64,000 nucleotides of DNA from a virus (Duplodnaviria; Heunggongvirae; Uroviricota; Caudoviricetes), in the IMG/VR virus record IMGVR_UViG_3300022468_000500; one strand, 5' to 3'. Below are positions 4,153 through 25,639 of the stretch, piece by piece (position 1 is the stretch's first letter; each line of letters starts with the position of its first letter). The position numbers were made by a program, and so were the translations under genes. The notes under the pieces are model-generated. The model saw only the letters and a program-made list of their open reading frames with translations, did no database searches and was not told the origin of the DNA.

Positions 4153-5523
4153 TTAACCTACACGTGCACGAATTTCTGCAAACGTTGTAGTGTTAACTAA
4201 ATCGCCATTTACATAGCGAGTACGTAGTTGATCGTGTTCTAGCGCTTCATCGGTTAGTGGCACATTGACCAGTTCACCTGCGTCATTACGGACCACACAG
4301 AATAGCCCACGTAGGCTAGACTTTCCGGAGTCAGTAATAGGGTCCTTATAAACGTCACGCCATTCAGACTCACCAGCTACCTTAATAGCTGAGCACTTCA
4401 TAGCAAACTTACAGGTGTCACGATTTACCATTTGTAGTAGTGCACCACCTTGACCGAACAATACGTTATCAGCACTAAATCCAGCCATCTTCATGCAAAA
4501 AAGAATGGAACGAATGTTAGCGTGGTTGATACCATCGCCTTGTAGTACACGAACATTATTCAGTACACGATAGCCCTTACTATTAGTAGTGCTACCAAAA
4601 TACTTTTCTAGGATGTATAGACACTTTACTACCACTTCACTAGGTTCGCCCGAGTCGGGTCGAACAACAAGCATAGCACCACTAGCAAGGACTTCGTCCT
4701 TTAGCACAGTACCCCATAGCTTGCAGGCTTCGTAGATATTATAGCTATCACTAACTGCTGATACAATACCTCCTTGCACAGCATTCTTACGAACCATATT
4801 GCGGTAGGCTTCTACTTCGTTTTCACGACCCCAGCTGGTCACAGTGCTGTGTTCCATAGCAGGTACAGAAAAAGCTACATTGGTATCGCCATATACTTCT
4901 TCAATGTCTAGCATTGAGATAGCAGTATCTGTACCACGGAATACTGCTAAGTGAGCTGAGCCGCCAATACGTGCACTTTCGCCGCTAGAAACGCCGCGAG
5001 CACCGAAATCATGTAGTTTGAAGTCGATAATGCTAGGATCGCCTGTTTCTTCTAGGTACTTCTCGATAATACGACGACTAGCTAGACTATTAGACGCTAC
5101 CGTAGTAGGGTACCAAATAGCACGTAGCAGCATAGTTTCGAAGAAACTAGTTAGCCAACCAGACTTCCAATCAGTATTAACTACTGTTAGCATCACGGTA
5201 CCTGGCTTTACGATAGTACCCTCATCTAGTGCCTTGATATGTAGAGGTAATACGCCACCATATTCATTAACAATGTAATCCCAGCCAGCACGGTTAAACG
5301 GTTCGCCATGTGCTGTGATAATACGTTCTGCCTGATCTACTTCGGCCTTAGTAATAGGATTAGCAAGCCAGGTCTTGAGGAAACGTTGCGTTCCCATCAT
5401 TACGAGTTCATCATACTCCCCGCCCCGAGAAGCAATGTATGAATAAACATATTCAGTACCTGGAGGATACTGATTAAACTGAGAGAACTTATAACTATCA
5501 GCCTCTAGAATTCGATTTTGCAT
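4153..5523 (-). CDS. nadV: nicotinamide phosphoribosyltransferase (NAMPT/NadV)
   Basis: Near-complete set of NAMPT signature blocks: DSYK, YPPGT, KLHDFGARGVSS, GTDT, SVPAMEHSTVTSWG, SDSYNIY, RPDSGEP, NSKGY, QGDG, FGQGGALLQ. Confidence 0.92.
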   Translation of the reverse strand: MQNRILEADSYKFSQFNQYPPGTEYVYSYIASRGGEYDELVMMGTQRFLKTWLANPITKAEVDQAERIITAHGEPFNRAGWDYIVNEYGGVLPLHIKALDEGTIVKPGTVMLTVVNTDWKSGWLTSFFETMLLRAIWYPTTVASNSLASRRIIEKYLEETGDPSIIDFKLHDFGARGVSSGESARIGGSAHLAVFRGTDTAISMLDIEEVYGDTNVAFSVPAMEHSTVTSWGRENEVEAYRNMVRKNAVQGGIVSAVSDSYNIYEACKLWGTVLKDEVLASGAMLVVRPDSGEPSEVVVKCLYILEKYFGSTTNSKGYRVLNNVRVLQGDGINHANIRSILFCMKMAGFSADNVLFGQGGALLQMVNRDTCKFAMKCSAIKVAGESEWRDVYKDPITDSGKSSLRGLFCVVRNDAGELVNVPLTDEALEHDQLRTRYVNGDLVNTTTFAEIRARVG

Positions 5524-5544
5524 AGTAAAAACTCCTTTTACTTA

Positions 5545-5736
5545 TTAATAATTTTTAACAATTACTTTATTGCCACAAGCCGGGCACCTAATAAAGTAAA
5601 CACGTTCACAGCCCCCGCCCCAGTCTTTATCGTCGTAGTATTGAACTTCAGACTGGACGTATTCTAGCTTACTAGAGCAGTTACGGCAAGTGCACTTGCG
5701 AACAAATTTATCATTCTTTCCAACAATGGCTACCAT
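5545..5736 (-). CDS. zinc-ribbon protein
   Basis: CxxC...CPACG pattern. Confidence 0.4.
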   Translation of the reverse strand: MVAIVGKNDKFVRKCTCRNCSSKLEYVQSEVQYYDDKDWGGGCERVYFIRCPACGNKVIVKNY

Positions 5737-5994
5737 TTACAGCTTTCGATAAGTTAGCACAATGAAGTTAGTATAATCACTAGAATCATATGAATCGTAC
5801 GTAAGACATTCGGTGTGAATGTACTCTGAAGTAATCCTAATATCTTCAGGTGTAGCGTCTGGCCAATTATTTTTGATAACCTGCATAATAGCTGCTAAAT
5901 CGTAATCATCTGCAGCATTCAAATAAATTACTGTATCAGTATTGTCTGGCCAGTAATCCTTAATACACCCATTATTGCGATATGAATAACCCAT
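5737..5994 (-). CDS. hypothetical protein
   Basis: 85-aa ORF. Confidence 0.35.
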   Translation of the reverse strand: MGYSYRNNGCIKDYWPDNTDTVIYLNAADDYDLAAIMQVIKNNWPDATPEDIRITSEYIHTECLTYDSYDSSDYTNFIVLTYRKL

Positions 5995-6061
5995 TGCTTT
6001 CCTTTATCACTGTATAGACTATATTATACAGAAATACAGTCTATACTTCAAGACAATAATA

Positions 6062-7105
6062 TCAAACGCGAACGAATGATTGAATAATGTCGTAGTGATC
6101 CTCAAACAAATTAGCTGACTTAACTTGGCTGATCGGTACCCATTCAGCCTTTGCGGCGTCATCCATGCCTTTGACCTTTGGTAGGTCAATGCTATCTGTT
6201 AGCTTAATGAAATGAGCGTGTGTAATCGTACGACCACGGGCACTACGATCAATGTGATCAAACACCTTAGTAGTTACAATACTACCTTTTAGCACCTTGT
6301 CTGGTACTTTTAGACCAGTTTCTTCACGTAGTTCACGAATACAAGCAGATTCAATACTTGCATCTGTACCGGCATTGAAGAACCCACCAGGCAGTGCCAT
6401 TAAACCTTTGCCTGGTTCTGACTTGCGCTCAATCATTAGTACGTGACCAGATTGAACAACTACCGCATCTACAGTAACGAACACAGGAGGATAAGCTAGA
6501 CCCTCGAACTGTTTCTTGTAAGCTGTAATGTACTCACGTTCACGAATAAGTTGATCGTATTCTTTACTATTTAGGAAACCTGACAGAAACGGCATCGAAC
6601 TTGTGGGAATCACACCTTCGATGAACTTTAGGTTCACATTGCGACGGAAATAAATATCGCGAATAGTGCTGGCATCAAGCGGTTCTAGGAGCTCAACATT
6701 TTCTTGCTCCCATTGTGGAAACCACCGTAGGTAATCGCTAGAGCTATCCTTAATATGGCCTATTACACCGATGCGATCACCAGTATAACTGTACTTACCT
6801 ACTAGTTGCTGAATACGAGAAATCCAAGCATTATCATCATAAGCAGTGTCAATGTTACCTAGAATGGTAAACGATGCGTCATATGTTTCGCTTAGACGAC
6901 GCTCTTTAATCGCTCCAATTATTAGTGCTTGGCGCTCAACGAAATTAAACGGATTTTTGTAGGTACGTGGACGATCAACTGATCCCACAATGACAATAAC
7001 GCGCTTGGCAAGTTGCGCAGCGCGTTTCAGGGTTTCTACGTGCGCACTATGTAACATTTGGAAACGTCCAATATACACTAATACGTCATACTTCTTTTGG
7101 GTCAT
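6062..7105 (-). CDS. nadM: bifunctional NMN adenylyltransferase / Nudix ADP-ribose pyrophosphatase (NadM-like)
   Basis: N-terminal nucleotidyltransferase motif GRFQMLHSAH; C-terminal Nudix box GGFFNAGTDASIESACIRELREETGL. Confidence 0.85.
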   Translation of the reverse strand: MTQKKYDVLVYIGRFQMLHSAHVETLKRAAQLAKRVIVIVGSVDRPRTYKNPFNFVERQALIIGAIKERRLSETYDASFTILGNIDTAYDDNAWISRIQQLVGKYSYTGDRIGVIGHIKDSSSDYLRWFPQWEQENVELLEPLDASTIRDIYFRRNVNLKFIEGVIPTSSMPFLSGFLNSKEYDQLIREREYITAYKKQFEGLAYPPVFVTVDAVVVQSGHVLMIERKSEPGKGLMALPGGFFNAGTDASIESACIRELREETGLKVPDKVLKGSIVTTKVFDHIDRSARGRTITHAHFIKLTDSIDLPKVKGMDDAAKAEWVPISQVKSANLFEDHYDIIQSFVRV

Positions 7106-7193
7106 TCTAAACTCCTTAGAACGTGGTTAATAATAAAGACGGTGTTGGTTATGTTGTTTTAACAACTTGGCAGAATCCGTCAACTGCGCATTT

Positions 7194-7267
7194 TGGTAGC
7201 AAGGTAAGGAATCGAACCTTCGTCGCTCGATTATCAGTCGAGTGCTCTGCCATTGAGCTACAATGCC
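7194..7267 (-). tRNA. trnI(gau): tRNA-Ile(GAU)-like with acceptor-stem mismatches
   Basis: D arm TAGCTCAATGGCAGAGC, anticodon stem CTCGA/TCGAG loop CTGATAA, T-loop TTCGATT, CCA encoded; acceptor GGCATTG vs CCTTGCT has two internal mismatches. Confidence 0.45.
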
Positions 7268-7273
7268 ATTGTT

Positions 7274-7348
7274 TGGTAGGGTCGCTGAGATTCGAACTCA
7301 GTTCTCATCCGTTAAGAGCGGAGGCTTCACCGTCAAAGTTTCGTCCCT
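7274..7348 (-). tRNA. tRNA candidate (anticodon possibly CUU, Lys)
   Basis: T arm CTGAG-TTCGAAT-CTCAG, acceptor AGGGACG/CGACCCT (one mismatch), CCA encoded; anticodon assignment uncertain. Confidence 0.4.
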
Positions 7349-7351
7349 ATG

Positions 7352-7537: not shown

Positions 7538-7689
7538 TTATTTACCTTTAAAATTATATTGCGACATACAAATACCGAGCTATGCTCGTACAAGATTCAT
7601 CTCTCTGCATGCTATTACTGTGTTCTTGTCACACGCAAATAGAAAAAACGAGAACAAATCGCATTAGAAAGAGCACCAGCTCATAAGCC

Positions 7690-8079: not shown

Positions 8080-8769
8080 TTAAAATTTTTGATAAACAGT
8101 AAACCCTTTGCAAGACTTACGTGTTCCTGCTAGCATTCTTGACACATTTGAAGAATGATTAGTTGTACCTAAATATTCTCTGCAAAAGTCTTTTATACAA
8201 AATAACTCTATTAGTGAGTTATCAGGAGCTTTTAATATAGCTATAGCGTTTTGCCTATATTTATCAGTATTACTTCTTGTTTTCGAAGTCATTAAATGAT
8301 ATTCTTTAGAATACTTTTTTAACCATAAGTGATTTTTACTGTTATGCATATCACTTACTAAGGTAGTAGGTACTCTACATTTGGCAGCTATTTGTGGAAT
8401 TGTTAACTCACCTTTATACAACAGTGAAAAAACTCTTAAAATAGTTATACCTGAGTACTTTGATGCATTACTATTAGGACCAAAACCTACTATACCGGGT
8501 GCTACTATACATAAGCCGGAATTTAATGCATTGAATTCATTTGTCCAAAAAACTTCTTTGTTCGGTAGTTCGTCTATACTACATTCTTCTAAAATTATGA
8601 AATCTGGGTTACCATATTTGTTGTATGCATCTTGTACTTTATAGTTAGAATGCTTATTTGTATTCAGTTTTCTAAAATGTTCGGACTTTCTTTGGGTTAG
8701 ATTTTGAGATAAACCTATGTAAATTAAATCCTGTTCCCACCAATATAAAGCATATATTCCTGAATTCAT
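8080..8769 (-). CDS. GIY-YIG homing endonuclease
   Basis: MNSGIYALYWW...LIYIGLSQNLTQRKSEH GIY-YIG motif; start placed at internal Met matching the 53122..53751 paralog and clearing the adjacent tRNA. Confidence 0.7.
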   Translation of the reverse strand: MNSGIYALYWWEQDLIYIGLSQNLTQRKSEHFRKLNTNKHSNYKVQDAYNKYGNPDFIILEECSIDELPNKEVFWTNEFNALNSGLCIVAPGIVGFGPNSNASKYSGITILRVFSLLYKGELTIPQIAAKCRVPTTLVSDMHNSKNHLWLKKYSKEYHLMTSKTRSNTDKYRQNAIAILKAPDNSLIELFCIKDFCREYLGTTNHSSNVSRMLAGTRKSCKGFTVYQKF

Positions 8770-8770
8770 A

Positions 8771-8847
8771 TGGTCCCTAACGTAGGATTCGAACCTACAT
8801 CCCACGGCTTCGTAGACCGGGATACTCTCCAATTGTACTAATCAGGG
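8771..8847 (-). tRNA. trnR(acg): tRNA-Arg(ACG)
   Basis: Acceptor CCCTGAT/GTTAGGG, anticodon loop CTACGAA, T arm GTAGG-TTCGAAT-CCTAC, CCA encoded. Confidence 0.65.
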
Positions 8848-9320: not shown

Positions 9321-9563
9321 TCAAAGTTCTAGTACAGAAACCCAGTCTTCGTCGGTCATGTACGTTTCCACGAATTCGTCCACACTAGACATATGTGGAA
9401 GTGTGCCATCTGTATACATTTGTAATAGCTCTGCATTATTCAAATGTACAATTACAGCATGAATATCACTATTCGCTTCAACTATTTCATGTATTAGAGC
9501 ACCTTCAAATAAATCAAAGCGTGCTACTGCGAATTTCATAAGTCGGTTTCCAGAGTTTTGCAT
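9321..9563 (-). CDS. hypothetical protein
   Basis: 80-aa ORF. Confidence 0.3.
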   Translation of the reverse strand: MQNSGNRLMKFAVARFDLFEGALIHEIVEANSDIHAVIVHLNNAELLQMYTDGTLPHMSSVDEFVETYMTDEDWVSVLEL

Positions 9564-9891
9564 ATTTAACTACGTTAGGGTATTCAAATCTAGGGCACAA
9601 AACTGCTGCAACAATTGTCATACCATAGTTGCGTTCAGTGGTTAGAGACACCTGCTCTTCTTTCATAATTCTGTTCATTTCGGCTTGATTAACCTTGCAT
9701 ACGCACTTCTTATAGCTTTCGCGCAGCCAGTGCTTATACTCAGGAATATTCTCAAAATGCCTGTGTGCTGATAATACAGCATGTGCCACAACGACTGGAA
9801 CCATGTGGTCGTCTACAGTGTCTAGAACAAAGATATACTCTTTTAGCTTACTTAGTTCTGCTGTTAGTTCATCAACTTCTGTCTGTGTCAT
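9514..9891 (-). CDS. hypothetical protein
   Basis: 125-aa ORF. Confidence 0.4.
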   Translation of the reverse strand: MTQTEVDELTAELSKLKEYIFVLDTVDDHMVPVVVAHAVLSAHRHFENIPEYKHWLRESYKKCVCKVNQAEMNRIMKEEQVSLTTERNYGMTIVAAVLCPRFEYPNVVKYAKLWKPTYEIRSSTL

Positions 9892-10567: not shown

Positions 10568-10828
10568 TTATCCTCTAACAGTAGAGGTTACTTTAACCTC
10601 TACTGTTGTATTCAACTTTACATTAAGTTCTTCGCCAAGAGCGTAAAACTTAACAGCTTTTTTATTTACGTATTCTTGTAGCAGATTAACATCTGAAACC
10701 ATAGCAAATTTTTCTACAGTTACTGGATAACTGGCATTATAACTACCACGATTACCCTCATATGGATCATAATGATGCTCTGTCTCTTGCCACGTAACTA
10801 AAAATTTATTCGGTTTGTTGCTTAGCAT
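10568..10828 (-). CDS. hypothetical protein
   Basis: 86-aa ORF. Confidence 0.35.
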   Translation of the reverse strand: MLSNKPNKFLVTWQETEHHYDPYEGNRGSYNASYPVTVEKFAMVSDVNLLQEYVNKKAVKFYALGEELNVKLNTTVEVKVTSTVRG

Positions 10829-11396
10829 ACTCTTTTTCTAATGCTTCGGCACGTAGATGCAGTCGAAGCTCAACTTCGTCGCTATGCATCCAAATGTCCT
10901 TATTATCTAGTAGACTTTGAATTTCTTCCGGTGTTAGGAAATGCTTGTAAATATCGCCTAGGAACTTAGTAGACCATTCACGTTCAAATACTGCCTGGTC
11001 GTATTGTTCTCCACCTTTACCTACAATGCCACCGCTATAGTTGTGGAACATCCATAAAGAATGAGGAGTAATTTCCCAAGAATCAGCACATAGGAAGATC
11101 ATAGTTCCAGCACTCATGCAAGAACCCTCAACACTACAGGTAACGTGTGCTTGTGTCTCGCCTAGAACTCTAGTAAATTGAAGAGCTGTATCTACATCGC
11201 CACCACCAGTATTAAGGTGGATTTTAACGCTATCATCAGGACCGGCATGACGAATTTCGTTAAACCATTCTACATAGTTATCTGGACTAAGAATAGGACC
11301 ACTAAGATAGTATTCCAGGCTTTGTGCTAGATTACGCTTAAATGAGTTACTACCCATTCCACTTAACATTGCTAATCCATCTAGGTTATCGTCCAT
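10806..11396 (-). CDS. ClpP-like serine protease (S14 family)
   Basis: HLNTGGGDVDTALQ...GSCMSAGTMIF resembles the ClpP core around the active-site Ser. Confidence 0.55.
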   Translation of the reverse strand: MDDNLDGLAMLSGMGSNSFKRNLAQSLEYYLSGPILSPDNYVEWFNEIRHAGPDDSVKIHLNTGGGDVDTALQFTRVLGETQAHVTCSVEGSCMSAGTMIFLCADSWEITPHSLWMFHNYSGGIVGKGGEQYDQAVFEREWSTKFLGDIYKHFLTPEEIQSLLDNKDIWMHSDEVELRLHLRAEALEKEYAKQQTE

Positions 11397-12379: not shown

Positions 12380-12595
12380 GAATATACGAGAACAAGTCGA
12401 AAATACTACAACGGCTTGCGCCACTCGTGTCCTAAACCACTAGACGATAACGGCTTATACTGCCGTTACGGGGATTCGAACTCCGGTTCCGAGTTTGAAA
12501 TGAAGTAAGTATTACCTACACTACGTATGTATGAGAATGTGAGAACAAAGCAACAACAGAGATTTTAGCGCTCTAACCAACTGGGCTACTCGGGC

Positions 12596-12690
12596 TATGT
12601 GCCCAAGGTAGGATTCGAACCTACGACCTCTCGATTAATAGTCGAAGTAACTGTTATCTAACACTACACATAAAAACTGCACAAGAACAG
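12596..12690 (-). ncRNA. tRNA-like element (candidate Y-RNA-like module) downstream of the Ro60 gene
   Basis: Perfect T arm GTAGG-TTCGAAT-CCTAC and GTGTAGTGT/GTTACTTC box but no canonical acceptor or anticodon arm. Confidence 0.3.
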
Positions 12691-12767
12691 AGCTAAACAG
12701 AAATGCTTTCGGCTGGGACCAGCTGCTATACCAATTCGCATACTCCGCAGGTTTTACGCCACGAGAG

Positions 12768-12850
12768 GTAGGACTCGAACCTACAAACGCTTGTTTGAAG
12801 TAACCGTTTATTTCACTATGTGCGTATGAGTTAGCCTAGAATAAGTTAGT
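12768..12850 (-). ncRNA. tRNA-like element (candidate Y-RNA-like module)
   Basis: T arm GTAGG-TTCGAGT-CCTAC; anticodon arm replaced by tetraloop hairpin AAAC-AAGC-GTTT; GAAGTAAC box. Confidence 0.3.
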
Positions 12851-13076
12851 ATAGTGCAATGCCACCAGATGGCAATTTTTCCTGAAGAGAAAAATAAAGA
12901 ATCGAACTTTGAAGTAACTATACAATTCGCAAAGGCTTAGAAAATGGTAGCAACAGTAATGAAATAGTGTGTTTCTGCATAGGTGAAGTAACTATTTCGG
13001 ACAGCATACCATGTTCTAAGCCTTCGCAGGCTTAGAGTACCACTCTTAATAGGACTGACTACCTACACGTGTGGAT

Positions 13077-14402
13077 TTATAGACCAGAAGCTTCTAGCTC
13101 CTGGATGTAAGAGATAACAGCTTCTGAGAAGCCATTAACCTTTTCGTAACCAGCAACGTTGCCAACACCGTTTTGGCAATTGGATACGTTAACAATATAG
13201 TTCTTACCACCGTTCTTAGCTGCTGGCAGTGGATCATGTGTTTGTTCGTCAGTGAACACGATAACACGAGCATGTGGATAGCGAGAGTGAACGTCGCGAA
13301 CCGCAGTACCTAGGTGAGTGCCTCCGTGAGGTTGGCTAGCACTTAGTTGCTCACGTAGTGCGAAACCGCGACCTGCGTTATTCAGATACTTGATCTGATT
13401 AGAGAAAGTAGCAATGGTCACATCTTCACAGATTTCCTGTGCAAGCATAGCTAGAGCAGCAGCTGCATCGAAACGATCTAGCTCTGACTTATCGCTAACC
13501 TTAGGGCCGAACATAGAACGGGACACGTCTACTAGTAGAACGGTCTTACCACGTAGCTTAGGCAGATCAGTACATGACTTGAACATCATGCCTTCTAGCA
13601 GTTCGCTAAGCTGAGGTACATGCTGACGAGCAGCAACGTAACGGAAAGGCAGAACCTTAGATACGTTAACAGTACTTGCGTATTCAGCCATTAGCTGCAT
13701 AGAAACACCACTTTGTACCATATTACGAAGGTTACGGATGAATGCAAGAGCACCCAGCTTGTTTTCCTTCATAAGACGAGTGAACGTCAGACCCTTATCC
13801 GCACCAGCAGACAGTTCAACTTCCCAAGTATCTGGAGTTACCAGAGCCTTATCGGCTACCTTCTTGAACAGGATTTCCTGTTCTGCAGAAGCTGGCTTAG
13901 GGTGAGTCAGGAACATAACATCACGAATGGTGATGGCAGCAGAATTCTTATCCCACTTAGCTAGGCTGTATTCATTGAACTTAGCGAATGCCATTGCCAG
14001 GCCCTTGCGGACTTGGTTGGAGATAGCGCACTTCTTTTCCTGCCAGTAAAGTGCTAGGAAAGTACCCATTTCGTCTGGACGCTGAATCACGGTAGCCAGA
14101 TCAGCTGCCTTCAGGTTACCACGACGAGCTAGTTCACGAGCCAGCAGCAGAGGTACGTGACGAAGATTGTGCTTCGTACGCGCTTCGATCATAAGCTCAG
14201 CTACAGCAGTAGGATGACACTTAGGAACAAGCGTAGAAATTAGTTGTGCTGAAGTAACACCGTCAACATAGAAGGTATCTTCGAACAGCATAGAAGCTAG
14301 CACCATACGACGCAGCTTAACCATATCAGGTTCAGTACGCGTTGCTAGGCCTTCATAGTTTTTAACCATAGGAGCTACAACACGACGATTTACATTAGCC
14401 AT
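13077..14402 (-). CDS. rsr: Ro60-like TROVE-domain protein with C-terminal vWA domain (Rsr ortholog)
   Basis: 441 aa; N-terminal helical TROVE-like region; C-terminal vWA with MIDAS motif DVSRSM, as in Ro60 and Rsr. Confidence 0.75.
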   Translation of the reverse strand: MANVNRRVVAPMVKNYEGLATRTEPDMVKLRRMVLASMLFEDTFYVDGVTSAQLISTLVPKCHPTAVAELMIEARTKHNLRHVPLLLARELARRGNLKAADLATVIQRPDEMGTFLALYWQEKKCAISNQVRKGLAMAFAKFNEYSLAKWDKNSAAITIRDVMFLTHPKPASAEQEILFKKVADKALVTPDTWEVELSAGADKGLTFTRLMKENKLGALAFIRNLRNMVQSGVSMQLMAEYASTVNVSKVLPFRYVAARQHVPQLSELLEGMMFKSCTDLPKLRGKTVLLVDVSRSMFGPKVSDKSELDRFDAAAALAMLAQEICEDVTIATFSNQIKYLNNAGRGFALREQLSASQPHGGTHLGTAVRDVHSRYPHARVIVFTDEQTHDPLPAAKNGGKNYIVNVSNCQNGVGNVAGYEKVNGFSEAVISYIQELEASGL

Positions 14403-14691
14403 TTTAATTTGCTTTCTTTTTGTTAAATTTAGTTAGTTTTAGAGATAGATGTTAATCGTAAACAGTTGCACACTTATTTAATTTTTAGCCAGATAACTCA
14501 GTGCATAAAACTGGGGTTCTTGTTTTAACTGTCAAGTCAGGTTGCTAACAAATTATTTCTAATAGTCAGCGGCTAGTATAATGAAGTAACTGTATTTAAT
14601 GAAACTGCTTTCGCTCATCTCAAACTGCAATACTATCTTCTAAAACATTAATTATACAGATTTTTGATTATGATTTCAAGTTTAAATTTAC

Positions 14692-18093: not shown

Positions 18094-18555
18094 TTACGGT
18101 TTAAATTTGTGTAGATACACTGTATTATTAGATAGTGTTTGTTCAATAATGGCTAGAACAACTTGCTCATTTAATCCGCCTAGCCCTGCTCCGATCAGAT
18201 AGGGAATATGAATCGGTAGCTTAGTACCTTTTACGGTTTCAAGGCAAGACTCTAGTGCGTCATAACTAGCATACTTTTTACCATCTTTACCATAAAATTC
18301 TTGGGTAAAGCAATTAGCAATGTAAAACTCTTTATTTCGGAAATCGGGGTAGTACGTTACCACTCTTCCTAATAAATTCTCTGAATCATGCCAATACTTT
18401 TTACATAACGCAGCATACGGAATAAATATGTTTGGATACTTATCACGTAGCTGTTTGGCTACACCACTACCCATTACGCCTTGGCAATTAACACCTTGAA
18501 GGATAACACCTTCAACTACATCACATATATTACTGTTTTCTTTAATTTCAATCAT
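18094..18555 (-). CDS. macro domain protein (TARG1/OARD1-like ADP-ribose processing)
   Basis: GVNCQGVMGSGVAKQ and IGAGLGG motifs resemble the HCISEDCRMGAGIA and glycine-rich loops of TARG1-type macrodomains. Confidence 0.55.
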   Translation of the reverse strand: MIEIKENSNICDVVEGVILQGVNCQGVMGSGVAKQLRDKYPNIFIPYAALCKKYWHDSENLLGRVVTYYPDFRNKEFYIANCFTQEFYGKDGKKYASYDALESCLETVKGTKLPIHIPYLIGAGLGGLNEQVVLAIIEQTLSNNTVYLHKFKP

Positions 18556-19187
18556 TCTACTGTGAATTTATTATGTTTTCTGCTATTATCTGCTAAACTA
18601 AGGTATTGTAAATTCTCCAAAACGTGTAAGCCACTAACTAATTCGCCTTGAAGCGGTACAATATGATCTACTGTCATATTCTGCGGACAATTATTATAAA
18701 ACTGTTTAATTAAATCTAACTGTGCCCAAGTAGGCGTTCTTAGTAGCTTATTAGATCTGTATTCAGATTGTCTGCCTGCTTGTGTAGATCCAGTAGTACT
18801 TGTATGGCAGGTTTTGCAATAAGCATTGATGCCATTTTTCTGAGATTTATTAGCTCTAAATTCAGAATACTCGTACACGTTTTTGCAATGACTACAATAT
18901 TTATGCCCTACACTATTTAGTATATATGTACATGGCTTACAACCCGTAGTAGTAATAACACGGCCAGGAAATAATTTTTTAAGCAGTTTTGCTGTAGAAT
19001 TGACTGATAACCCTAATTGATTAAGATTATACGTATGTTGGGATATAGTCTTGATAAAGTGTTCTACTGATAGCGGACACTCTTTATTACCATATTTACG
19101 CGCGTTATTGCCAGCTTCTTCTATTATAGAAATATAATTAGCGGAAACTATACCTATAGCTTCCGATATTGCAGTTAGTTTATCCAT
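18552..19187 (-). CDS. HNH homing endonuclease
   Basis: Cys-rich zinc-finger region plus DHIVPL...N...N HNH core. Confidence 0.7.
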   Translation of the reverse strand: MDKLTAISEAIGIVSANYISIIEEAGNNARKYGNKECPLSVEHFIKTISQHTYNLNQLGLSVNSTAKLLKKLFPGRVITTTGCKPCTYILNSVGHKYCSHCKNVYEYSEFRANKSQKNGINAYCKTCHTSTTGSTQAGRQSEYRSNKLLRTPTWAQLDLIKQFYNNCPQNMTVDHIVPLQGELVSGLHVLENLQYLSLADNSRKHNKFTVE

Positions 19188-19259
19188 TGAGGTCTCCGTT
19201 ATAACATTAATAGTATATTATAACACTAAACTCATGAATTGTCTACTCCAAATTTTGTG

Positions 19260-19340
19260 TGGTACCGAGGGTGGGAATCGAACCCACATTAACTACCTTA
19301 TCTGGATAGTGCTTACGAGTGTATAAGGCTCGCCCTTAGG
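19260..19340 (-). ncRNA. tRNA-like element (intact T arm GTGGG-TTCGATT-CCCAC and CCA end, no pairing 5' acceptor)
   Basis: 3' half is tRNA-like; 5' half does not pair. Confidence 0.25.
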
Positions 19341-19445: not shown

Positions 19446-19772
19446 TTAAATGTCAATAAATTCGATTGGAAGACGTAACTGCATTGCTAGACTAAGTTCT
19501 GCACGTACACCTGTTGATTCGTCCCATCCTGGGAAACGAATAATAATTACCTTATCACAGCGACGCATTAAGTCAACACAGAAGTCTTGCCAGAAATGGT
19601 AATCAGTACCTAGATTAGGATTTTCTAAGCAAGCATAGTGATTAACTAGACCTGAAACTAGGAATTGTCCCTGGTTAGCTAACATATAGTCAGCACTAAT
19701 GCGGGCAATATCTCGCATTAGTTGGTTTTTATCAGAAATGTTACTATATGGAGCGCAGACGTATGCTAGCAT
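19446..19772 (-). CDS. hypothetical protein (possible nucleoside 2-deoxyribosyltransferase-like fold)
   Basis: VIIIRFPGWDESTG...E pattern. Confidence 0.3.
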   Translation of the reverse strand: MLAYVCAPYSNISDKNQLMRDIARISADYMLANQGQFLVSGLVNHYACLENPNLGTDYHFWQDFCVDLMRRCDKVIIIRFPGWDESTGVRAELSLAMQLRLPIEFIDI

Positions 19773-20251
19773 TAATTAAACCATTCAGGTGGATTACGAT
19801 TAGTCCAAGTCGCAATATCGCGCTTGTCGCGACAGTAGTAAGCGCGATAAGCGTCTACTACGTCAGGAATTTGTTTAAAATCATCATGAACACACTTAGG
19901 TGGTTCAGTAAATGGTACGTTAGGAATATCCGGATATGGCCAATCACGTACTTTTAAAATAGTAGCATGAGTTTTGTTATGGTCATAACGATATTGTGCT
20001 TCTTCGTTAAGAGCATCCATTAAATCCATTAAGTACAGATAATTATTAATGGAAGAACGAACCCAAATAGCACAGGGATGATTTTTGTGAGTTAACCTAT
20101 AAAGATTAGGAATAGACTCAGGCTCATAATGATGTAGATGAAGAGCGGAAGCTAATAGCTGACCACCTTCTAGAATCATTTTATTCACATGCTTATCACA
20201 ATGTGCTTGAGCGCATTTTGTAATGTCTCGATCAAGATAAAATATGTTCAT
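19772..20251 (-). CDS. conserved Cys/His-rich phage protein
   Basis: N-terminal MNIFYLDRDITKCAQAHCDKHVNKMILEG block; family not assigned. Confidence 0.4.
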   Translation of the reverse strand: MNIFYLDRDITKCAQAHCDKHVNKMILEGGQLLASALHLHHYEPESIPNLYRLTHKNHPCAIWVRSSINNYLYLMDLMDALNEEAQYRYDHNKTHATILKVRDWPYPDIPNVPFTEPPKCVHDDFKQIPDVVDAYRAYYCRDKRDIATWTNRNPPEWFN

Positions 20252-20486: not shown

Positions 20487-20580
20487 AAGGAGTGGACTCG
20501 AACCACTGACCTTTACGTTGGATTTAAATTGCATATGCAAACCGTAACGCTCTTCCATCTGAGCTACCATGAGGATTTGG
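20487..20580 (-). ncRNA. tRNA-like element with palindromic insert in the anticodon region
   Basis: Canonical D arm TAGCTCAGATGGAAGAGC and T arm AGTGG-TTCGAGT-CCACT, but stem TTACG/CGTAA encloses 28 nt (ATTTAAAT plus TTGCATATGCAA palindromes); acceptor halves do not pair. Confidence 0.3.
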
Positions 20581-20673
20581 CCGTTTAGTCCGATAACGTC
20601 CAAGAGTCGCCGACCCTCTACTATGTAGAACGTCTTTCTAGCCTAAGCTAAGGACGCACGTAGCCCTATTTTG

Positions 20674-20757
20674 TGGTACGACCGGAGAGACTCGAACTCT
20701 CACTCCGAAGAATCAGGACCTAAACCTGACGCGGCTACCAAATTACGCCACGGTCGC
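20674..20757 (-). tRNA. trnL(uag): tRNA-Leu(UAG), class II
   Basis: Acceptor GCGACCG/CGGTCGT, anticodon stem TCAGG/CCTGA loop TTTAGGT, variable hairpin CTTCGGAG, T arm GAGAG-TTCGAGT-CTCTC, CCA encoded. Confidence 0.65.
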
Positions 20758-20767
20758 ATTAATGTAT

Positions 20768-20995
20768 TTAAAAGTCGTAGTCATCTACTTCAGCAGAAGT
20801 AATATTTACAACAATTTGTTTGTGATCAGTTTGGTCTTGGTCTACACCATCCCAATCGACTTCAATAGGTGTGATAGCCATACCTTTTAGGACACTAAAC
20901 TTCACTTTTCCATCCATCATTTGTTTACTAAGCCAGTTAGTGAAGGCAACGGCTTCAGCCTGATTTTCGAACGATTCAATTACTACTTTACACAT
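20768..20995 (-). CDS. hypothetical protein
   Basis: 75-aa ORF. Confidence 0.3.
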   Translation of the reverse strand: MCKVVIESFENQAEAVAFTNWLSKQMMDGKVKFSVLKGMAITPIEVDWDGVDQDQTDHKQIVVNITSAEVDDYDF

Positions 20996-21411
20996 TATAC
21001 AAGCCTTGGAATTGATATAGCACAGTGTACCATTGCCGACTTATTGTAGTCGTTAAAGGCAGACTTTGTAACCATATCTAGCATGGTTGCTGTTGTAGGA
21101 ACGATGCCTTGTTCTTTTTCTTCAATATCATCTACGTTGTAATTACCACCGTAGAAAAACGTTGTAGTAAAATAGTGGTTGCCGTCATCACCGAAGATAA
21201 TTCCAGCGTAAATAGGAACTAACTGTTGTGGGTCTAACGTAATTCCTACTTCTTCGTAGACTTCACGTACTACTGCCTGTACATCAGTTTCACCATCGTC
21301 TACTTTTCCGCCAGGAAAGCCTACTAGGTCAGAGTCTCTGCGAGTGACTGCTAGAATTTCGTCTGAACCTGACGGGATGATTGCACAAACTGCACGTTTT
21401 ACTTGTCGCAT
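20995..21411 (-). CDS. Nudix hydrolase
   Basis: Nudix box GGKVDDGETDVQAVVREVYEEVGI. Confidence 0.75.
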   Translation of the reverse strand: MRQVKRAVCAIIPSGSDEILAVTRRDSDLVGFPGGKVDDGETDVQAVVREVYEEVGITLDPQQLVPIYAGIIFGDDGNHYFTTTFFYGGNYNVDDIEEKEQGIVPTTATMLDMVTKSAFNDYNKSAMVHCAISIPRLV

Positions 21412-21881
21412 ACTAGCATATCCCTTACTTTATCTAAGACTTTGCCCATTAAGTTCTGGCCTAACCATGTTTCTTCGTTTTGCGCCCTAGGGTCGCTGGC
21501 CGTTAGCCCAATACCCCAGATACAGTCGTAAGGGCTTGCTTCCACCATTGTAGTGCCGACCGTAACTAATAGTGCTTCTTTTAGCTTGGGATTTTGTGAA
21601 AATTTAGCGTAAAGGCCGTCCACCATTATGCCAAATCTAACCTTAGACCAGACTGCGTCGTCGTAGTTTCGTACTTGACGCCCTAAATTCTTTTGAGTCT
21701 GAGGATCATCAGTTAGCATAATTAGCTCAGCTGTTGGTATATCTCCAAAAACTACAGCCTTCATAAACATCATATACTGTTCACCACGAGTAAACGTAGT
21801 ACCATCGACTACAAACACACTAGGATACCAGTTAGAGAATGGTGTTCTGTTATTCCAGAAAAATGTAAATTGTTTATTCAT
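21399..21881 (-). CDS. NADAR-domain protein (YbiA-like N-glycosidase)
   Basis: FFW...PFSNW...GEQYMMFMKA...LGRQVRNYDD...EASPYDCIWGIG pattern matches the DUF1768/NADAR family. Confidence 0.75.
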   Translation of the reverse strand: MNKQFTFFWNNRTPFSNWYPSVFVVDGTTFTRGEQYMMFMKAVVFGDIPTAELIMLTDDPQTQKNLGRQVRNYDDAVWSKVRFGIMVDGLYAKFSQNPKLKEALLVTVGTTMVEASPYDCIWGIGLTASDPRAQNEETWLGQNLMGKVLDKVRDMLVCDK

Positions 21882-22105: not shown

Positions 22106-22115
22106 CATTAATTTT

Positions 22116-22199: not shown

Positions 22200-22520
22200 C
22201 ACATAATGAAACCTGCTAGTCTACCGAACTAGCTTCTCCTTTCGTACCATCACAGTATTAAGGCTTCGTCAAGCCCGAAAGCGCATTGAATATATGCTAA
22301 GGTTTAATTATGTGCACTAAGCCAAAGTCGAGAACAACTTAATGCGTGTAAGATAGTTTTAAAACAACCGATGAACCAATTACGGGCTCTGGAGACTCTT
22401 ACGTTTTCCTGCTAATTAGGCAGGCCTCTATTCATAGTTAGGTGAGTCGCAGCATTCTCACTAATTACGGACCTACTACTGTTCTGATACCCTTAAGTGG
22501 CCACAATACGGGTCAGCGTA

Positions 22521-22901
22521 CTAACTAATAACTTTACGCCCGTGGGTTAAAGTTATTAACTCACCACGTTTACTTTCTTGCCAAGTCTTAGACCAAGGGC
22601 CACGAATACTAAAAGCCCAAGACGTATCTCGTGCTAGAATTTTATGGAAACATCCACGAGGGGTCCATTTGGGAATAAAACTCGGTTCCCAATCTTTGAA
22701 GCCACCTTCTACGAATACTTCCCGTACTGAACCTGATAACCACCAAGTCAGTGCGTTAAAGGCATGATTGTGAAAGGCTTCACGACTTCCCTTAGAAAAT
22801 CGTAGAAACACAATGGAAAATCCAGCTTTCCATTCGATCAACCAGTAACCTGTAACACCAGAATCTTTGCCACCATCGTGGCTCTTTTTAAAGAATTCCA
22901 T
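22521..22901 (-). CDS. hypothetical protein
   Basis: 126-aa ORF. Confidence 0.4.
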   Translation of the reverse strand: MEFFKKSHDGGKDSGVTGYWLIEWKAGFSIVFLRFSKGSREAFHNHAFNALTWWLSGSVREVFVEGGFKDWEPSFIPKWTPRGCFHKILARDTSWAFSIRGPWSKTWQESKRGELITLTHGRKVIS

Positions 22902-22915
22902 AATATTAATAAATT

Positions 22916-23005
22916 TGGTGGAGGCGGAAGGACTTGAACCTTCACAGTCTTATTTGTGTGCGGCTGATTTACAGTCAGTTGAGCTCTCCAGCGCTCAGCA
23001 CCTCC
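22916..23005 (-). tRNA. trnY(gua): tRNA-Tyr(GUA), class II
   Basis: Acceptor GGAGGTG/CGCCTCC, D stem GAGC/GCTC, anticodon loop CTGTAAA, long variable arm, T arm GAAGG-TTCAAGT-CCTTC, CCA encoded. Confidence 0.65.
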
Positions 23006-23319
23006 AAAGAATCCACAAGCTCAATGGTGGCTTGTGAATCAGAATTTTTCAATTTTTCAACAAATGACTCGTAAACGTATGCAATACTAGCAGACATTCG
23101 CTGCGATGTTTTATATAGCTGGTATACTGATTCTGTTGGACCAGTTACTAGGTAATACTCGCCTTTATCTTCAACTTTAGTGATTCCGCTGTTGAGTTTC
23201 CACGAAGTACCTTGAGTGTATCCGCCTGCCCAACCAGCAAGAATTTTATTTACCACCCCATACTGGGGTGAACGGAACCGGACAACCACCCAGCAGTCAG
23301 GAGTGTAAACGTTGTTCAT
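22975..23319 (-). CDS. hypothetical protein
   Basis: 114-aa ORF; last 30 nt overlap the 5' part of tRNA-Tyr. Confidence 0.4.
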   Translation of the reverse strand: MNNVYTPDCWVVVRFRSPQYGVVNKILAGWAGGYTQGTSWKLNSGITKVEDKGEYYLVTGPTESVYQLYKTSQRMSASIAYVYESFVEKLKNSDSQATIELVDSLEVLSAGELN

Positions 23320-23325
23320 TTTAAA

Positions 23326-23634
23326 CTACCATTTAATTAGTGTGGTATGCATTAGAGACTGATGCTCTGGAATATTGAATCCAGCTGCTAATAGTTCTTC
23401 TTTTACTTTATCAGTCAGCCAATAATTCTCTATATAAGCGTATTTATTGCCTGTTTTACTGCAACGTTTAATATCGCCAAAAACTCTTTTTCTAGCTTTC
23501 TTTTGATGATTTACCGAAGTCTTAGCGTTTCTAAGTTCTATAGCTTTATTAAGAAGTCTTGGATTTAAACCGCCGAAGCGCATCCGCATCAAGACTAGCA
23601 TAAGTGCGAAATTTATCTTTGCCAACTTCATCAT
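23326..23634 (-). CDS. hypothetical basic protein
   Basis: 102-aa ORF, K/R-rich. Confidence 0.35.
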   Translation of the reverse strand: MMKLAKINFALMLVLMRMRFGGLNPRLLNKAIELRNAKTSVNHQKKARKRVFGDIKRCSKTGNKYAYIENYWLTDKVKEELLAAGFNIPEHQSLMHTTLIKW

Positions 23635-23888
23635 AGAATTTTTCTGCCATGTTACGGAGAGAATTAGCTCGATCAGCAGTTAGCACAGGCTCGTAGCGCC
23701 ACATGAACGCATCAACCAGAAATTCTTTGCTATACGCTGCTGCCATTACATTCTCCGATTTAAAGAATAATTATATAACGATTAAGCTGCGTAATCAAGT
23801 AAAGAGTTTTGAATGTCACATAGTGACAATTATCGAAAAGAGTAGTAATTATACAGCATTGATCAGCTAGGGTCAAGTGTAAATTTTA

Positions 23889-24182
23889 CTATCTGCTTAA
23901 CTTCCAATTAATAACTCTTTCCCAGAATGATGGTTTTACTACTATAGGTCGATTCTGATAATCAGTAATAATTTTTGAAATGTCTACTACTGCTTGGTCA
24001 ATAACGTCTTCATCTACAGAGTAGAGTACATAGCAAGTAACACTGGGATTACGGCTGGTACCATATTCCATTTTAGACAATACTTCGATTCCGGTATTGC
24101 TATAACCTTTTAGCCTACAGTATTTATCTATCGCTTCGGTTAATTCTCCTGGCACGGAGAATGTATAGGTATTATTGGACAT
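23889..24182 (-). CDS. hypothetical protein
   Basis: 97-aa ORF. Confidence 0.35.
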   Translation of the reverse strand: MSNNTYTFSVPGELTEAIDKYCRLKGYSNTGIEVLSKMEYGTSRNPSVTCYVLYSVDEDVIDQAVVDISKIITDYQNRPIVVKPSFWERVINWKLSR

Positions 24183-24188
24183 AATGTT

Positions 24189-24264
24189 TGGTACCTCGTG
24201 AGAGACTCGAACTCCCGACCAATGATGTAGAAGATCACGGCTCTATCCACTGAGCTAACGAGGT
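24189..24264 (-). tRNA. trnR(ucu): tRNA-Arg(UCU)
   Basis: Perfect acceptor ACCTCGT/ACGAGGT, D arm GCTC-AGTGGATA-GAGC, anticodon loop CTTCTAC, CCA encoded. Confidence 0.7.
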
Positions 24265-24349
24265 TTGTTAAGTAATAATTATACAGATTTAAACAAACTG
24301 AATCAAGTCAATTTGTTTAAATCTGAACAGTCCGGAGACTGTTCAATTA

Positions 24350-24556
24350 TCAGATTTGATGCGCTAAAATCAATATCATTAACACATATAAGACTAATGT
24401 AAATACTGCTTGCAAGAAAGATGAAACAGCGCTTTCTTTGTCGTATGCACGCACGTACTGACCCATCTCCTTAAGATGAATACGTATAGCATTGAATGTA
24501 AGGTACGATCCAGCCAAAGCTAAGATAATACCACATACTACGTCAAAAGTACTCAT
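24350..24556 (-). CDS. small membrane protein
   Basis: Two hydrophobic helices. Confidence 0.35.
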   Translation of the reverse strand: MSTFDVVCGIILALAGSYLTFNAIRIHLKEMGQYVRAYDKESAVSSFLQAVFTLVLYVLMILILAHQI

Positions 24557-24876
24557 TCTACGCTTTCTGCAGAATTAACATAAGGATAGAAGTTACGTTG
24601 TTGCACTTCGTCCTGTACGTATTCCCACATTTCGTGTTCTGGAGTCAGTTCCTCTATTGAGTTCACCGAATGTGCCGCATCCTCTTCTAGCTCACCACCA
24701 TCCTCGCGATCTTCTTCATATTCAGTAGAAAACAGATCACGCATGTCCTGATCCATGAACTGCTCAGCCAATTCCTCTGCTTGAGCTTCATTTCGTGCGT
24801 AGACTAAGCAATGTGACGCACCACCACACCATTGCGAAGATTCGTAAGAGAGGATGAAAAGCTTTACGTCAGACAT
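24553..24876 (-). CDS. acidic protein
   Basis: D/E-rich 107-aa ORF. Confidence 0.4.
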   Translation of the reverse strand: MSDVKLFILSYESSQWCGGASHCLVYARNEAQAEELAEQFMDQDMRDLFSTEYEEDREDGGELEEDAAHSVNSIEELTPEHEMWEYVQDEVQQRNFYPYVNSAESVE

Positions 24877-24941
24877 TTTTGTTTATTTGTTGTGTTAAAG
24901 AATAATTATACAATATCTTAGCAGCACACTCAAGTATAAAA

Positions 24942-25172
24942 TTATACTTGTTTTGAGAAAGATATTTTGTAGGTAACAGACTCTAAAGTTTTTAGCACTT
25001 CAGGATAATGGTCGTAAAACCTAATAAAATTGTCAGCTGCTTCTTTAGTTTTGAAGAAATTAGCTCCCTCAATACTGGCCCTGTATACGTGGCCTCTGTG
25101 ATCTAAAGCCACGTATTTATCAGTACCAATAAAGTGCACTACTGTTCTAGTAATTACATCTACTAATTCCAT
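24942..25172 (-). CDS. hypothetical protein
   Basis: 76-aa ORF. Confidence 0.35.
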   Translation of the reverse strand: MELVDVITRTVVHFIGTDKYVALDHRGHVYRASIEGANFFKTKEAADNFIRFYDHYPEVLKTLESVTYKISFSKQV

Positions 25173-25639
25173 TACTTATCCAGTGCATCTAGTTCTACAT
25201 AGAAAATATGGTAACCAGCGGTACGTGCAATATCCTTTTCGGTTACGCCCTTTAGACGACGAATATCGCTGTTATGACGTAGGTCACACTTCTTGACCTT
25301 AATTGCGTCTTTATTAGCAACTACACGTTGCTTATACTCATCATGAGTTTCGCCAGGCATTTTGGTTAGAGCACGAACAGCCGTAATTACACGGTCAGAC
25401 ATACCTTCTTCACGTAGACGTTTAAAAGTAAACCTCTTATTATCTTCTACTACGTCATGTAACAGTGCAATACACTGTAGTTCTTCATCATCTGTCTTTA
25501 GATAATGCATGACTTTCATAGGATGAAGGATATAAGGATGTCCGCCTTTATCAAACTGTCCTTCATGTGCTTCCATCGCAAGACGAAGCGCCGTTTCTAA
25601 CATTGTACGTTTTTGCATTTTAGATTTCCGTATAGTCAA
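25172..25639 (-). CDS. HD-domain (p)ppGpp hydrolase-like protein (small alarmone hydrolase-like)
   Basis: HEGQFDKGGHPYILHP...IALLHDVVED matches the SpoT/RelA-type HD hydrolase motifs. Confidence 0.65.
   Translation of the reverse strand: MTIRKSKMQKRTMLETALRLAMEAHEGQFDKGGHPYILHPMKVMHYLKTDDEELQCIALLHDVVEDNKRFTFKRLREEGMSDRVITAVRALTKMPGETHDEYKQRVVANKDAIKVKKCDLRHNSDIRRLKGVTEKDIARTAGYHIFYVELDALDK

Follow-up and report, generated by a model that had tools for sequence, protein, structure and literature searches.

Several strategies have been described by which phages spare an infected cell from immunity based on nicotinamide adenine dinucleotide (NAD+), ADP-ribose or alarmones. Two NAD+ reconstitution pathways share an enzyme of the NAMPT family: NARP1, consisting of Adps and Namat, and NARP2, consisting of Nampt and Nmnat, which is found in ~1.1% of phage genomes and yields excess NAD+ even where no defence system is present (Osterman et al., bioRxiv 10.1101/2024.02.11.579819). 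NAD+ cleavage by systems of the aRES (RES-domain) type releases nicotinamide and ADP-ribose-1''-phosphate, the latter of no use to NARP1. A Poa1p-like macro domain phosphatase that regenerates ADP-ribose, Adpp, is encoded in ~15% of NARP1 operons; both the phosphatase activity and the anti-aRES phenotype of Adpp are published, from a screen of NARP1 operons only (bioRxiv 10.64898/2026.01.28.702374). NADAR proteins from unrelated phages, including the T5-like phage Bas32, neutralise DarTG1 (PMC11257639), and every NADAR class tested, YbiA included, hydrolyses ADP-ribosyl-guanine (PMC11543638, PMC11125620), while stand-alone small alarmone hydrolases of phages neutralise all tested toxSAS toxins (PMC7229694). 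Here we compare with these systems a stretch of 64,000 nucleotides from a Caudoviricetes virus (IMG/VR record IMGVR_UViG_3300022468_000500), referred to at its full length as the window, in which a block of minus-strand genes encodes a NAMPT, a NadM-type adenylyltransferase/Nudix protein, a macro domain protein, a second Nudix hydrolase, a NADAR protein and an HD-domain protein.

These six open reading frames (ORFs) had been singled out from the nucleotide sequence alone (the original prediction) as a layered anti-defence toolkit. All six are present on the minus strand exactly where they had been placed, their domain calls were borne out by Pfam profile searches, with which PHROGs agreed, and profile searches, joined by structure prediction in the case of the macro protein, put the macro, NADAR and HD proteins in the families named. 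We favour, with moderate confidence, the reading that the co-oriented, tRNA-rich block is a collection of parallel accessory genes that would spare the infected cell from NAD+-, ADP-ribose- and alarmone-based immunity, the activities and phenotypes being predicted. A single accessory region would then combine four published strategies (NAD+ reconstitution, ADP-ribose-1''-phosphate clean-up, guanine de-ADP-ribosylation and (p)ppApp hydrolysis), which would make it useful both as a case of layered counter-defence found in nature and for the divergent enzyme variants that it encodes.

The novelty that had been suggested for this combination, and for its macro, NADAR and HD members, did not survive comparison with the literature, as each of these three members has a tested phage counterpart and the co-occurrence was reported in 2022. 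Iyer, Burroughs, Anantharaman and Aravind found that Macro, NADAR, Nudix and NAD+ salvage genes co-occur above chance in large phages, with placement in the early region and NADAR beside NadM/NadV (PMC9503650). Their survey concerned mostly myoviruses, with Macro in ~1% of siphoviruses and NADAR in ~1% of non-myovirus phages, whereas the window belongs to a siphovirus lineage holding all of these domains. Almost all parts of the block have published phage counterparts (NARP2, Adpp, NADAR and the small alarmone hydrolases); less described are the siphovirus host and an Adpp-like macro gene (and NADAR and DUF1937) travelling with NARP2 instead of NARP1. Co-occurrence was judged from the published statistics and from neighbourhood counts in fetched loci. 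Relatives of the window's phage were obtained solely by exact-protein look-ups in metagenome assemblies and comprise a first relative (L041/L046, a metagenome scaffold in ENA, 105,701 bp long and with 78-90% DNA identity to the window), a second (L047/L126, two contigs from SRR11802610) and a distant one (L048).

NAD+ reconstitution and the macro domain protein

The NAMPT gene (4153-5523, minus strand) is predicted to encode a nicotinamide phosphoribosyltransferase of the NadV/Nampt type (Pfam NAPRTase, 2.5e-49, and NAMPT_N, 4.8e-26; phrog_448, 6e-151), and its product passes the NCBIfam equivalog PRK09198 with 577 bits against a cut-off of 405. On the same strand, 538 bp upstream, lies the gene (6062-7105) for a NadM-type bifunctional nicotinamide mononucleotide (NMN) adenylyltransferase/Nudix protein (Pfam CTP_transf_like and NUDIX), whose solved relatives are NadM-Nudix 2qjo (2.6e-74, the best match) and 2qjt (8e-62) and which scores 365 bits with the NCBIfam bifunctional NMNAT/Nudix model, slightly below the cut-off of 397. 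The HxGH motif of this protein reads HSAH (Gly to Ala), and its Nudix box has a two-residue insertion and Asp for the first Glu, with REx2EE intact. These variants appear to be features of the clade and not signs of decay, because they are common to the closest homologues, ~105 of 120 of which have HxAH and 120 of 120 a 24-residue box. The Nudix half is presumably an ADP-ribose pyrophosphatase, as PDB and NCBIfam names suggest.

Two small minus-strand ORFs separate the genes, one of 85 amino acids (aa) (5737-5994; no Pfam family at E<=1e-3; 93% identical and at the same position in L046) and one of 63 aa (5545-5736; 86% identical in L046 and 54% in L047, at the same position). NadM and NAMPT were adjacent in 14 of the 16 IMG/VR loci fetched with NadM as well as in relatives L046-L048, and protein identity to the first relative was 98% for NadM and 93% for NAMPT. 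The phosphoribosyltransferases of NadM-linked loci scored 368-524 bits with the window NAMPT versus 151-234 bits with NARP1 Namat, and the window NAMPT was 29% identical to the Namat of Barbavirus. No Prs/Adps-like gene was seen among the scanned ORFs (window ORFs of at least 90 aa and the smaller ORFs of the block). With a NadM partner 0.5 kb away, no Prs/Adps-like gene and the higher scores versus Namat, the pair is assigned to the published NARP2 pathway rather than to NARP1, its activity being predicted from characterised homologues; this agrees with the original proposal of a two-enzyme NAD+ reconstitution route.

NARP2 of Vibrio phage KVP40 (NadV/NatV) likewise consists of a NadV-type NAMPT gene and a NadM-type gene on the same strand with no Adps, and differs from the window, where the two small conserved ORFs stand between the genes. 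NARP3 (PnuC and NadR; PMC13464706) is the pathway of T5-like phages of E. coli, Bas30 for example, whereas the T5-like phage of the window would use NARP2. In the proposed scheme NAMPT would convert nicotinamide and phosphoribosyl pyrophosphate (PRPP) to NMN, which NadM would adenylate to NAD+; the pair would rebuild NAD+ after depletion of the TIR, SIR2, SEFIR or RES type and would supply the NAD+-dependent DNA ligase of the lineage.

The macro gene (18094-18555, minus strand) encodes a protein that was marginal in Pfam Macro (23.8 bits against 22) and that matched yeast Poa1p (8.8e-9) and DarG (3.3e-6) by sequence; a profile of 60 macro homologues compared with solved structures confirmed the macro family. 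The AlphaFold model (pLDDT 93.6) had Poa1p (6lfr, rank 1), DarG, BT1257 and TARG1 as top Foldseek matches, and Poa1p is the closest characterised homologue by both sequence and fold. The protein had been called TARG1-like and proposed to counter DarT, a description that holds for the fold class and fails for the catalytic residues. The residues with known roles are N22 and K80 of DarG, K78 of AdfM and K84 of TARG1, and AdfM, the tested anti-DarT2 macro protein of a phage, keeps both Asn and Lys (PMC13309987). At the position of the DarG catalytic Lys the window protein has Gln85 ('PTKKHW' in M. tuberculosis DarG versus 'FTQEFY'), and Gln likewise takes the place of DarG K80 in every homologue examined, 60 from databases and 83 from IMG/VR; Asn23, which corresponds to DarG N22, was invariant among the homologues examined. 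The macro protein was rejected as an enzyme of the DarG2/AdfM/TARG1 type on account of this replacement of the catalytic Lys by an invariant Gln, and an anti-DarT2 role is unlikely because the catalytic Lys (K80/K84) is Gln.

It is thus very improbable that the protein is a TARG1/DarG2-like DNA ADP-ribosyl glycohydrolase which, like AdfM, undoes DarT2-catalysed ADP-ribosylation of thymine. Its top sequence and fold matches do include DarG macro domains, the DarG models of NCBIfam and PADLOC match the macro part, the equivalent of DarG N22 is invariant and a DarG2-like phage macro protein is known in AdfM. Besides the substituted Lys in the window and in the 83 and 60 homologues, however, it lacks a DarT-binding domain at the C-terminus, reaches 52 bits where the DarG model requires 250 and covers only positions 15-146 of that model's 338, and the macro family sits in NAD+ synthesis operons, not by DNA-metabolism genes.

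Membership of the Poa1p/Adpp family (Asn23, Gln85) is the best reading of the macro protein, which is most likely an ADP-ribose-1''-phosphate phosphatase or a related ADP-ribose-derivative hydrolase, as predicted from its family; it would convert ADP-ribose-1''-phosphate, the RES product, or a similar small ADP-ribose derivative to ADP-ribose. Likeness to Adpp was judged through the NARP1-linked macro gene of Barbavirus as a proxy for Adpp of the NARP1-AP operon of Vibrio phage Gary (KNV71_gp137). In the cultured Rheinheimera Barbavirus the macro (gp035), Prs-like and NAPRTase-like genes are contiguous, and this NARP1-embedded macro protein shares its family and the Asn/Gln/Gly signature with that of the window. 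The window gene differs in being found with NARP2 instead of NARP1 and in standing 11 kb away from NadM, not next to it.

For the macro family at large, 82 IMG/VR macro loci were grouped into 44 clusters at 70% macro identity. Within 10 kb of the macro gene, a NAMPT-family gene was accompanied by Adps (NARP1 type) in 11 clusters and by NadM (NARP2 type) in 5, NADAR and/or NAD synthase (NadE) alone were found in 4, and the remaining 24 had no NAD+-related gene. The distance between the NAMPT-family gene and macro was at most 10 kb in 16 of the 44 clusters, at most 3 kb in 10 and at most 500 bp in 4. Overlapping same-strand operons were observed in the orders NadM-NADAR-Macro-NAMPT (L100, 7401-11135) and NadM-NAMPT-Macro (L002, 7103-10438), and an operon of the order NadM-DUF1937-..-Macro-NAMPT in L052; further clusters of macro and NAD+ genes are present in L064 (5419-10453) and L069 (8262-11228), and a group of 28 loci shows the arrangement NAMPT-like-Macro-NadE with Adps-like matches within 10 kb of macro. 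Of these associations, only the link with NARP1 was found described in the literature consulted for comparison.

A seventh member of the theme, missed in the original prediction, may be the DUF1937 gene (19446-19772, minus strand), whose product is nucleoside 2-deoxyribosyltransferase-like (Pfam 8e-9; phrog_355) and has among solved structures a weak match to an uncharacterised protein only. The gene overlaps by 1 nt with a conserved ORF of 159 aa (19772-20251, minus strand), to which it is coupled, and adjoins the macro gene in relatives L041 and L126, with a ratio of nonsynonymous to synonymous substitution rates (dN/dS) of 0.07. It is also found within the NadM...NAMPT operon of L052 (6269-6721) and adjacent to macro on a T4-like contig (L127, 2992-3798).

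Under the counter-defence reading the macro and NADAR reactions would yield free ADP-ribose, which the Nudix domain of NadM could split into AMP and ribose-5-phosphate for PRPP synthesis. It is possible, though doubtful, that this extends to NARP2 more widely, with the Adpp-like macro protein, NADAR and perhaps DUF1937 as its recurrent accessories: RES-derived ADP-ribose-1''-phosphate and base adducts would both be turned into free ADP-ribose, and the product split off by NadM would refill the PRPP that NARP2 consumes. The macro genes inside NadM-NAMPT operons (L002, L052, L064 and L100) are left unexplained by the work on Adpp, because that screen covered NARP1 only and NARP2 alone defeats aRES. 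The question raised is why macro and NADAR genes stand within NARP2 operons at all if NARP2 alone defeats RES-type depletion, and its answer would tell if ADP-ribose derivatives are returned by phages to the PRPP/NAD+ pool; apart from that question, the findings confirm existing knowledge.

The NADAR, second Nudix and HD-domain proteins

The NADAR gene (21399-21881, minus strand; Pfam NADAR 1.5e-48) encodes a protein of 160 aa whose best solved relative is the stand-alone oomycete NADAR 8bau (2.8e-21), followed by E. coli YbiA 2b3w (2e-7). The catalytic pair Glu34/Lys41 lies in 'GEQYMMFMK' with the +7 spacing of E88/K95 in the E. coli C7 NADAR, and Glu114 of the last strand ('MVEAS') has its aligned counterparts in 'LYEAS' (8bau) and 'LVEHT' (YbiA). 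The last-strand residue is Glu in the YbiA class, Asp in the DarT1-linked class and His in AdfN of T4 (PMC11543638, PMC11125620), and the window protein (Glu34, Lys41, Glu114) is assigned by its residues to the YbiA class and not to the DarG1 or AdfN class. With AdfN and the NADARs of Bas32 and Bas60 (PMC11257639) it shares the fold, the Glu/Lys pair, the last-strand acidic residue and the stand-alone form, Bas32 being T5-like as well; it differs in having Glu where AdfN has His and DarG1 has Asp. Identity to the first relative was 85%, with a dN/dS of 0.09.

An anti-DarT1 role for this protein is plausible, because tested NADARs act on ADP-ribosyl-guanine and phage NADARs neutralise DarTG1, and its earlier proposal as a candidate anti-DarT factor fits these published cases. 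A soluble ADP-ribose derivative is equally open as the substrate, given that NADAR lies inside the NARP2 operon of L100 and beside NadM/NadV according to Iyer et al. By analogy with the tested phage proteins, the enzyme would strip ADP-ribose off guanine in DarT1-like-modified DNA or act on a soluble ADP-ribose conjugate. No ADP-ribosyltransferase domain was found among the scanned ORFs.

The NADAR gene overlaps by 13 nt with a gene for a minimal Nudix hydrolase (20995-21411, minus strand; NUDIX 9.6e-14) which has a complete Nudix box (Gly35-Ile57); the overlap is kept in three related phages (L041 and L126 among them), and the small Nudix protein would be translationally coupled to NADAR. Its neighbours by sequence, NCBIfam and fold were MutT, Ap4A hydrolase and RppH, and its structural model (pLDDT 76, from a shallow alignment) gave generic MutT/RppH fold matches. 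The ADP-ribose pyrophosphatase subfamily of Nudix enzymes carries a Pro ~16 residues past the Nudix box; the window protein has Phe73 at +16. The search for homologues yielded no more than seven, five of which belong to the same phage lineage, and the NADAR-Nudix pairing was not found outside the lineage (L022; none of the 44 macro clusters). Processing of ADP-ribose adducts had been suggested for this protein: membership of the Nudix family stands, and the ADP-ribose signature is absent. It is predicted to be MutT/RppH-like, and its sole link to the theme is the overlap with the NADAR gene.

The HD-domain gene (25172-25639, minus strand; Pfam HD_4 4e-8) encodes a putative stand-alone small alarmone hydrolase resembling Aph1, which probably starts at Met8 (25618) or Met13 (25603) and not at TTG. 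Its best solved match was Aph1 7smg (9.3e-26), with Rel/SpoT enzymes at 1e-9 or weaker, and the HD motifs His61-Asp62 and Glu65-Asp66 are present. Five of the six signature residues of Aph1 are kept, D24, R96, D116, R119 and Y134 corresponding to D30, R105, D125, R128 and Y143. Asp30 stands at the position of the guanine-stacking Arg (TtRel R43), reading 'GQFDKGG' versus 'GQFRKNG' and 'EQYRKSG' in Rel enzymes, and in Aph1 the adenine specificity is set by D24 and R119, the two residues at which mutation allows ppGpp to be accepted (PMC10083569). With five of the six Aph1 residues kept and Asp where Rel enzymes have Arg, the protein was rejected as a (p)ppGpp hydrolase. The original description as (p)ppGpp-hydrolase-like was thus right as to the HD alarmone-hydrolase family and not as to specificity, and nothing was found pointing to the cyclic nucleotides that had also been suggested as substrates.

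A better fit to these residues is a predicted (p)ppApp/toxSAS-type (3'-pyrophosphate) hydrolase, which would act on products of toxic small alarmone synthetases: (p)ppApp and perhaps also tRNA ends that are 3'-pyrophosphorylated. The protein resembles Aph1 (PDB 7smg; PMC10083569) in its single HD domain of ~145-155 aa, its HD...ED motifs and the five signature residues, and resembles the small alarmone hydrolases of phages PVP-SE1 and SSU5 (PMC7229694) in being encoded by a stand-alone phage gene. It differs from these systems in having no adjacent synthetase toxin and in being carried by a virulent-type T5-like genome, not a prophage; a toxin gene of the (p)ppApp synthetase type, with a RelA/SpoT synthetase domain, was seen neither beside it nor among the scanned ORFs. 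In the first relative the protein is 95% identical, with a dN/dS of 0.03.

Conservation of the block and competing explanations

In the first relative the order MazZ, HD, NADAR/Nudix, DUF1937, macro, Ro60, ClpP-like, NadM, NAMPT is kept, and the second relative has the same genes split over two contigs. All genes tested between the window and the first relative (HD, NADAR, second Nudix, macro and DUF1937) gave dN/dS values of 0.03-0.19, and the tested members are under strong purifying selection. The distant relative L048 (NadM 64% and Ro60 61% identical; 24 tRNA genes) keeps MazZ, NadM, NAMPT, Ro60 and ClpP in a syntenic block of 21 kb. By this comparison NARP2 is part of the lineage's older backbone and the 'eraser' enzymes are probably later, lineage-specific additions, because five genes (HD, NADAR, Nudix, macro and DUF1937) are missing from L048 while NARP2, Ro60 and the tRNAs persist. 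The genes are dispersed and appear to have been added stepwise, not as a single operon, yet they are thematically coherent and maintained by selection.

A number of observations weigh against the counter-defence reading. The absence of HD, NADAR, Nudix, macro and DUF1937 from the syntenic 21-kb block of L048 means that the set is not an obligatory co-inherited unit, and in the window itself the genes are scattered over 21 kb, with tRNA genes, homing endonucleases and ORFs of no assigned role in between. The macro protein is the fastest-evolving member (63-66% identity; dN/dS 0.19 against the first relative). It has Gln20 at the position of Poa1p His23, the residue mutated in PDB 6lfs, where 76 of 83 homologues have His; His is kept at this position in all NARP-embedded homologues, relative L041 also has Gln20 and L126 has His, and none of the five other Gln20 variants in the sample lies near NAD+ genes. 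In published assays NARP2 alone overcomes aRES (bioRxiv 10.64898/2026.01.28.702374), so that the need for an Adpp activity in this phage is not obvious. The second Nudix protein resembles MutT/RppH and not ADP-ribose pyrophosphatase, the NADAR protein passes NCBIfam TIGR02464 (156 bits against 73.7), a curated model for riboflavin-intermediate N-glycosidases, and in the HD protein the sixth Aph1 signature residue is lost, K133 being replaced by Gly (G142).

Some of these observations bear on an explanation by metabolic or housekeeping support, in which NARP2 feeds the ligase, NADAR clears riboflavin intermediates, the macro protein clears ADP-ribose-1''-phosphate arising from tRNA/RNA repair, the HD protein damps the stringent response and the Nudix protein sanitises nucleotides or processes RNA 5' ends. 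A NAD+-dependent ligase is encoded near the block in relatives, NARP2 makes excess NAD+ with no defence system present, the TIGR02464 model is named 'riboflavin biosynthesis intermediates N-glycosidase', Poa1p, the best characterised macro homologue, acts in tRNA splicing, the block carries at least 21 tRNA genes, a Ro60 gene with a YrlA-like RNA and a PTH2-like ORF, and the second Nudix resembles both MutT and RppH. We nevertheless consider this explanation unlikely. Tpt1/KptA, RNA ligase and 2H phosphoesterase, as a source of ADP-ribose-1''-phosphate, were not found among the scanned ORFs of the window; the HD protein has (p)ppApp-specific residues, with Asp replacing the guanine-stacking Arg; all tested NADARs, YbiA among them, hydrolyse ADP-ribosyl-guanine, and the tested phage NADARs counter DarTG1; and anti-defence phenotypes have been demonstrated for homologues of each family.

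The missing genes of L048, together with the interspersed HNH and GIY-YIG homing endonucleases, would also suit six unrelated morons in a hyperplastic, deletable tRNA region, with no functional relationship and a theme that reflects the commonness of these domains in large phages. NAMPT-like genes were found in 2021 of 50,697 phage records, macro in 785, NADAR in 731 and HD in 297, and the best matches of each gene came from differing phage lineages. This explanation is improbable: phages unrelated to that of the window (L100, L052, L002 and Barbavirus) carry subsets of the genes as overlapping operons on one strand, a NAMPT-family gene lies within 10 kb of macro in 16 of the 44 independent clusters, the published co-occurrence is above chance (PMC9503650) and the tested members are under strong purifying selection.

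Source phage and other genes of the block

The window is assigned to a virulent-type, T5-like siphovirus because of protein-level matches of its structural genes to T5-like phages. A single ORF of 645 aa (58598-60535, plus strand) is ~36% identical to two neighbouring T5-like genes, those for the prohead protease and the major capsid protein, and is apparently a fused protease-capsid gene, and T5 tail-terminator and T5 p143 domains were found in other window ORFs. A genome size of ~106 kb is suggested by the presence of the exact macro protein on JGI contigs of up to 106,137 bp. A megablast search of 20 kb against 50,697 phage records gave tRNA matches only, with no near-identical phage, and no close relative was found in IMG/VR, where the best NadM was at most 56% and the best macro at most 48% identical; the window represents a T5-like siphovirus lineage without a cultured relative. 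Between 41724 and 44139 (~2.4 kb) neither strand has an ORF of at least 90 aa.

Every gene from 13 to 26766 lies on the minus strand, with tRNA genes interleaved. ARAGORN identified 21 tRNA genes (2776-24264, all on the minus strand) interspersed with the accessory genes, Rfam gave three further tRNA-like matches (7277-7348, 20489-20568 and 22919-23005), and the same block of relatives holds 18-24 tRNA genes. Of the sigma-70-like promoter matches with at least 10/12 positions, 16 of 19 are on the minus strand. By analogy with T5, calling the block an 'early region' is a reasonable inference from this co-orientation, from the predominance of minus-strand promoters and from a T5 A2-like gene that is co-directional in a relative, where that gene and the NAD+-dependent DNA ligase gene continue the block's direction of transcription. 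The A2-like protein and the ligase are encoded in L046 at 18919-19287 and 20519-21044 and in L047 at 12739-13107 and 14520-14587. In the relatives the ligase gene begins ~3.5 kb past the counterpart of the window's first ORF, and the window's phage very likely encodes both proteins just outside the window.

Among the other genes of the block, all on the minus strand, is one for a Ro60/TROVE and vWA protein (13077-14402), which is 95% identical in the first relative and retained even in the distant L048. Just downstream of it there is a match to the YrlA-like bacterial Y RNA (12547-12657, minus strand), with 36.7 bits against a gathering score of 69 and E = 1.4e-5 in a 4-kb search. A MazZ-like protein of 218 aa (26110-26766), 98% identical in the relative, matches the dATP/dGTP diphosphohydrolase N-terminal domain over its C-terminal 100 residues (4.6e-29); no PurZ-like gene was seen within the window. 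The block also encodes an SPFH/Band 7 protein (1074-1913), a ClpP/NfeD-like protease (10806-11396) and a weak PTH2-like ORF (9514-9891). One window ORF has an RF-1 (peptidyl-tRNA hydrolase-type) domain and two have SprT-like domains.

An HNH endonuclease gene (18552-19187, minus strand) shares 4 nt with the start of the macro gene, and a further endonuclease gene lies at 8080-8832 (minus strand). In the close relative a tRNA-Met gene replaces HNH at the macro start and the HNH homologue lies upstream of NadM, while the GIY-YIG gene occupies different places in the window and the relative. The HNH and GIY-YIG genes look like mobile homing endonucleases, and the divergence of macro (63-66% identity), which exceeds that of most block genes, might be due to them.

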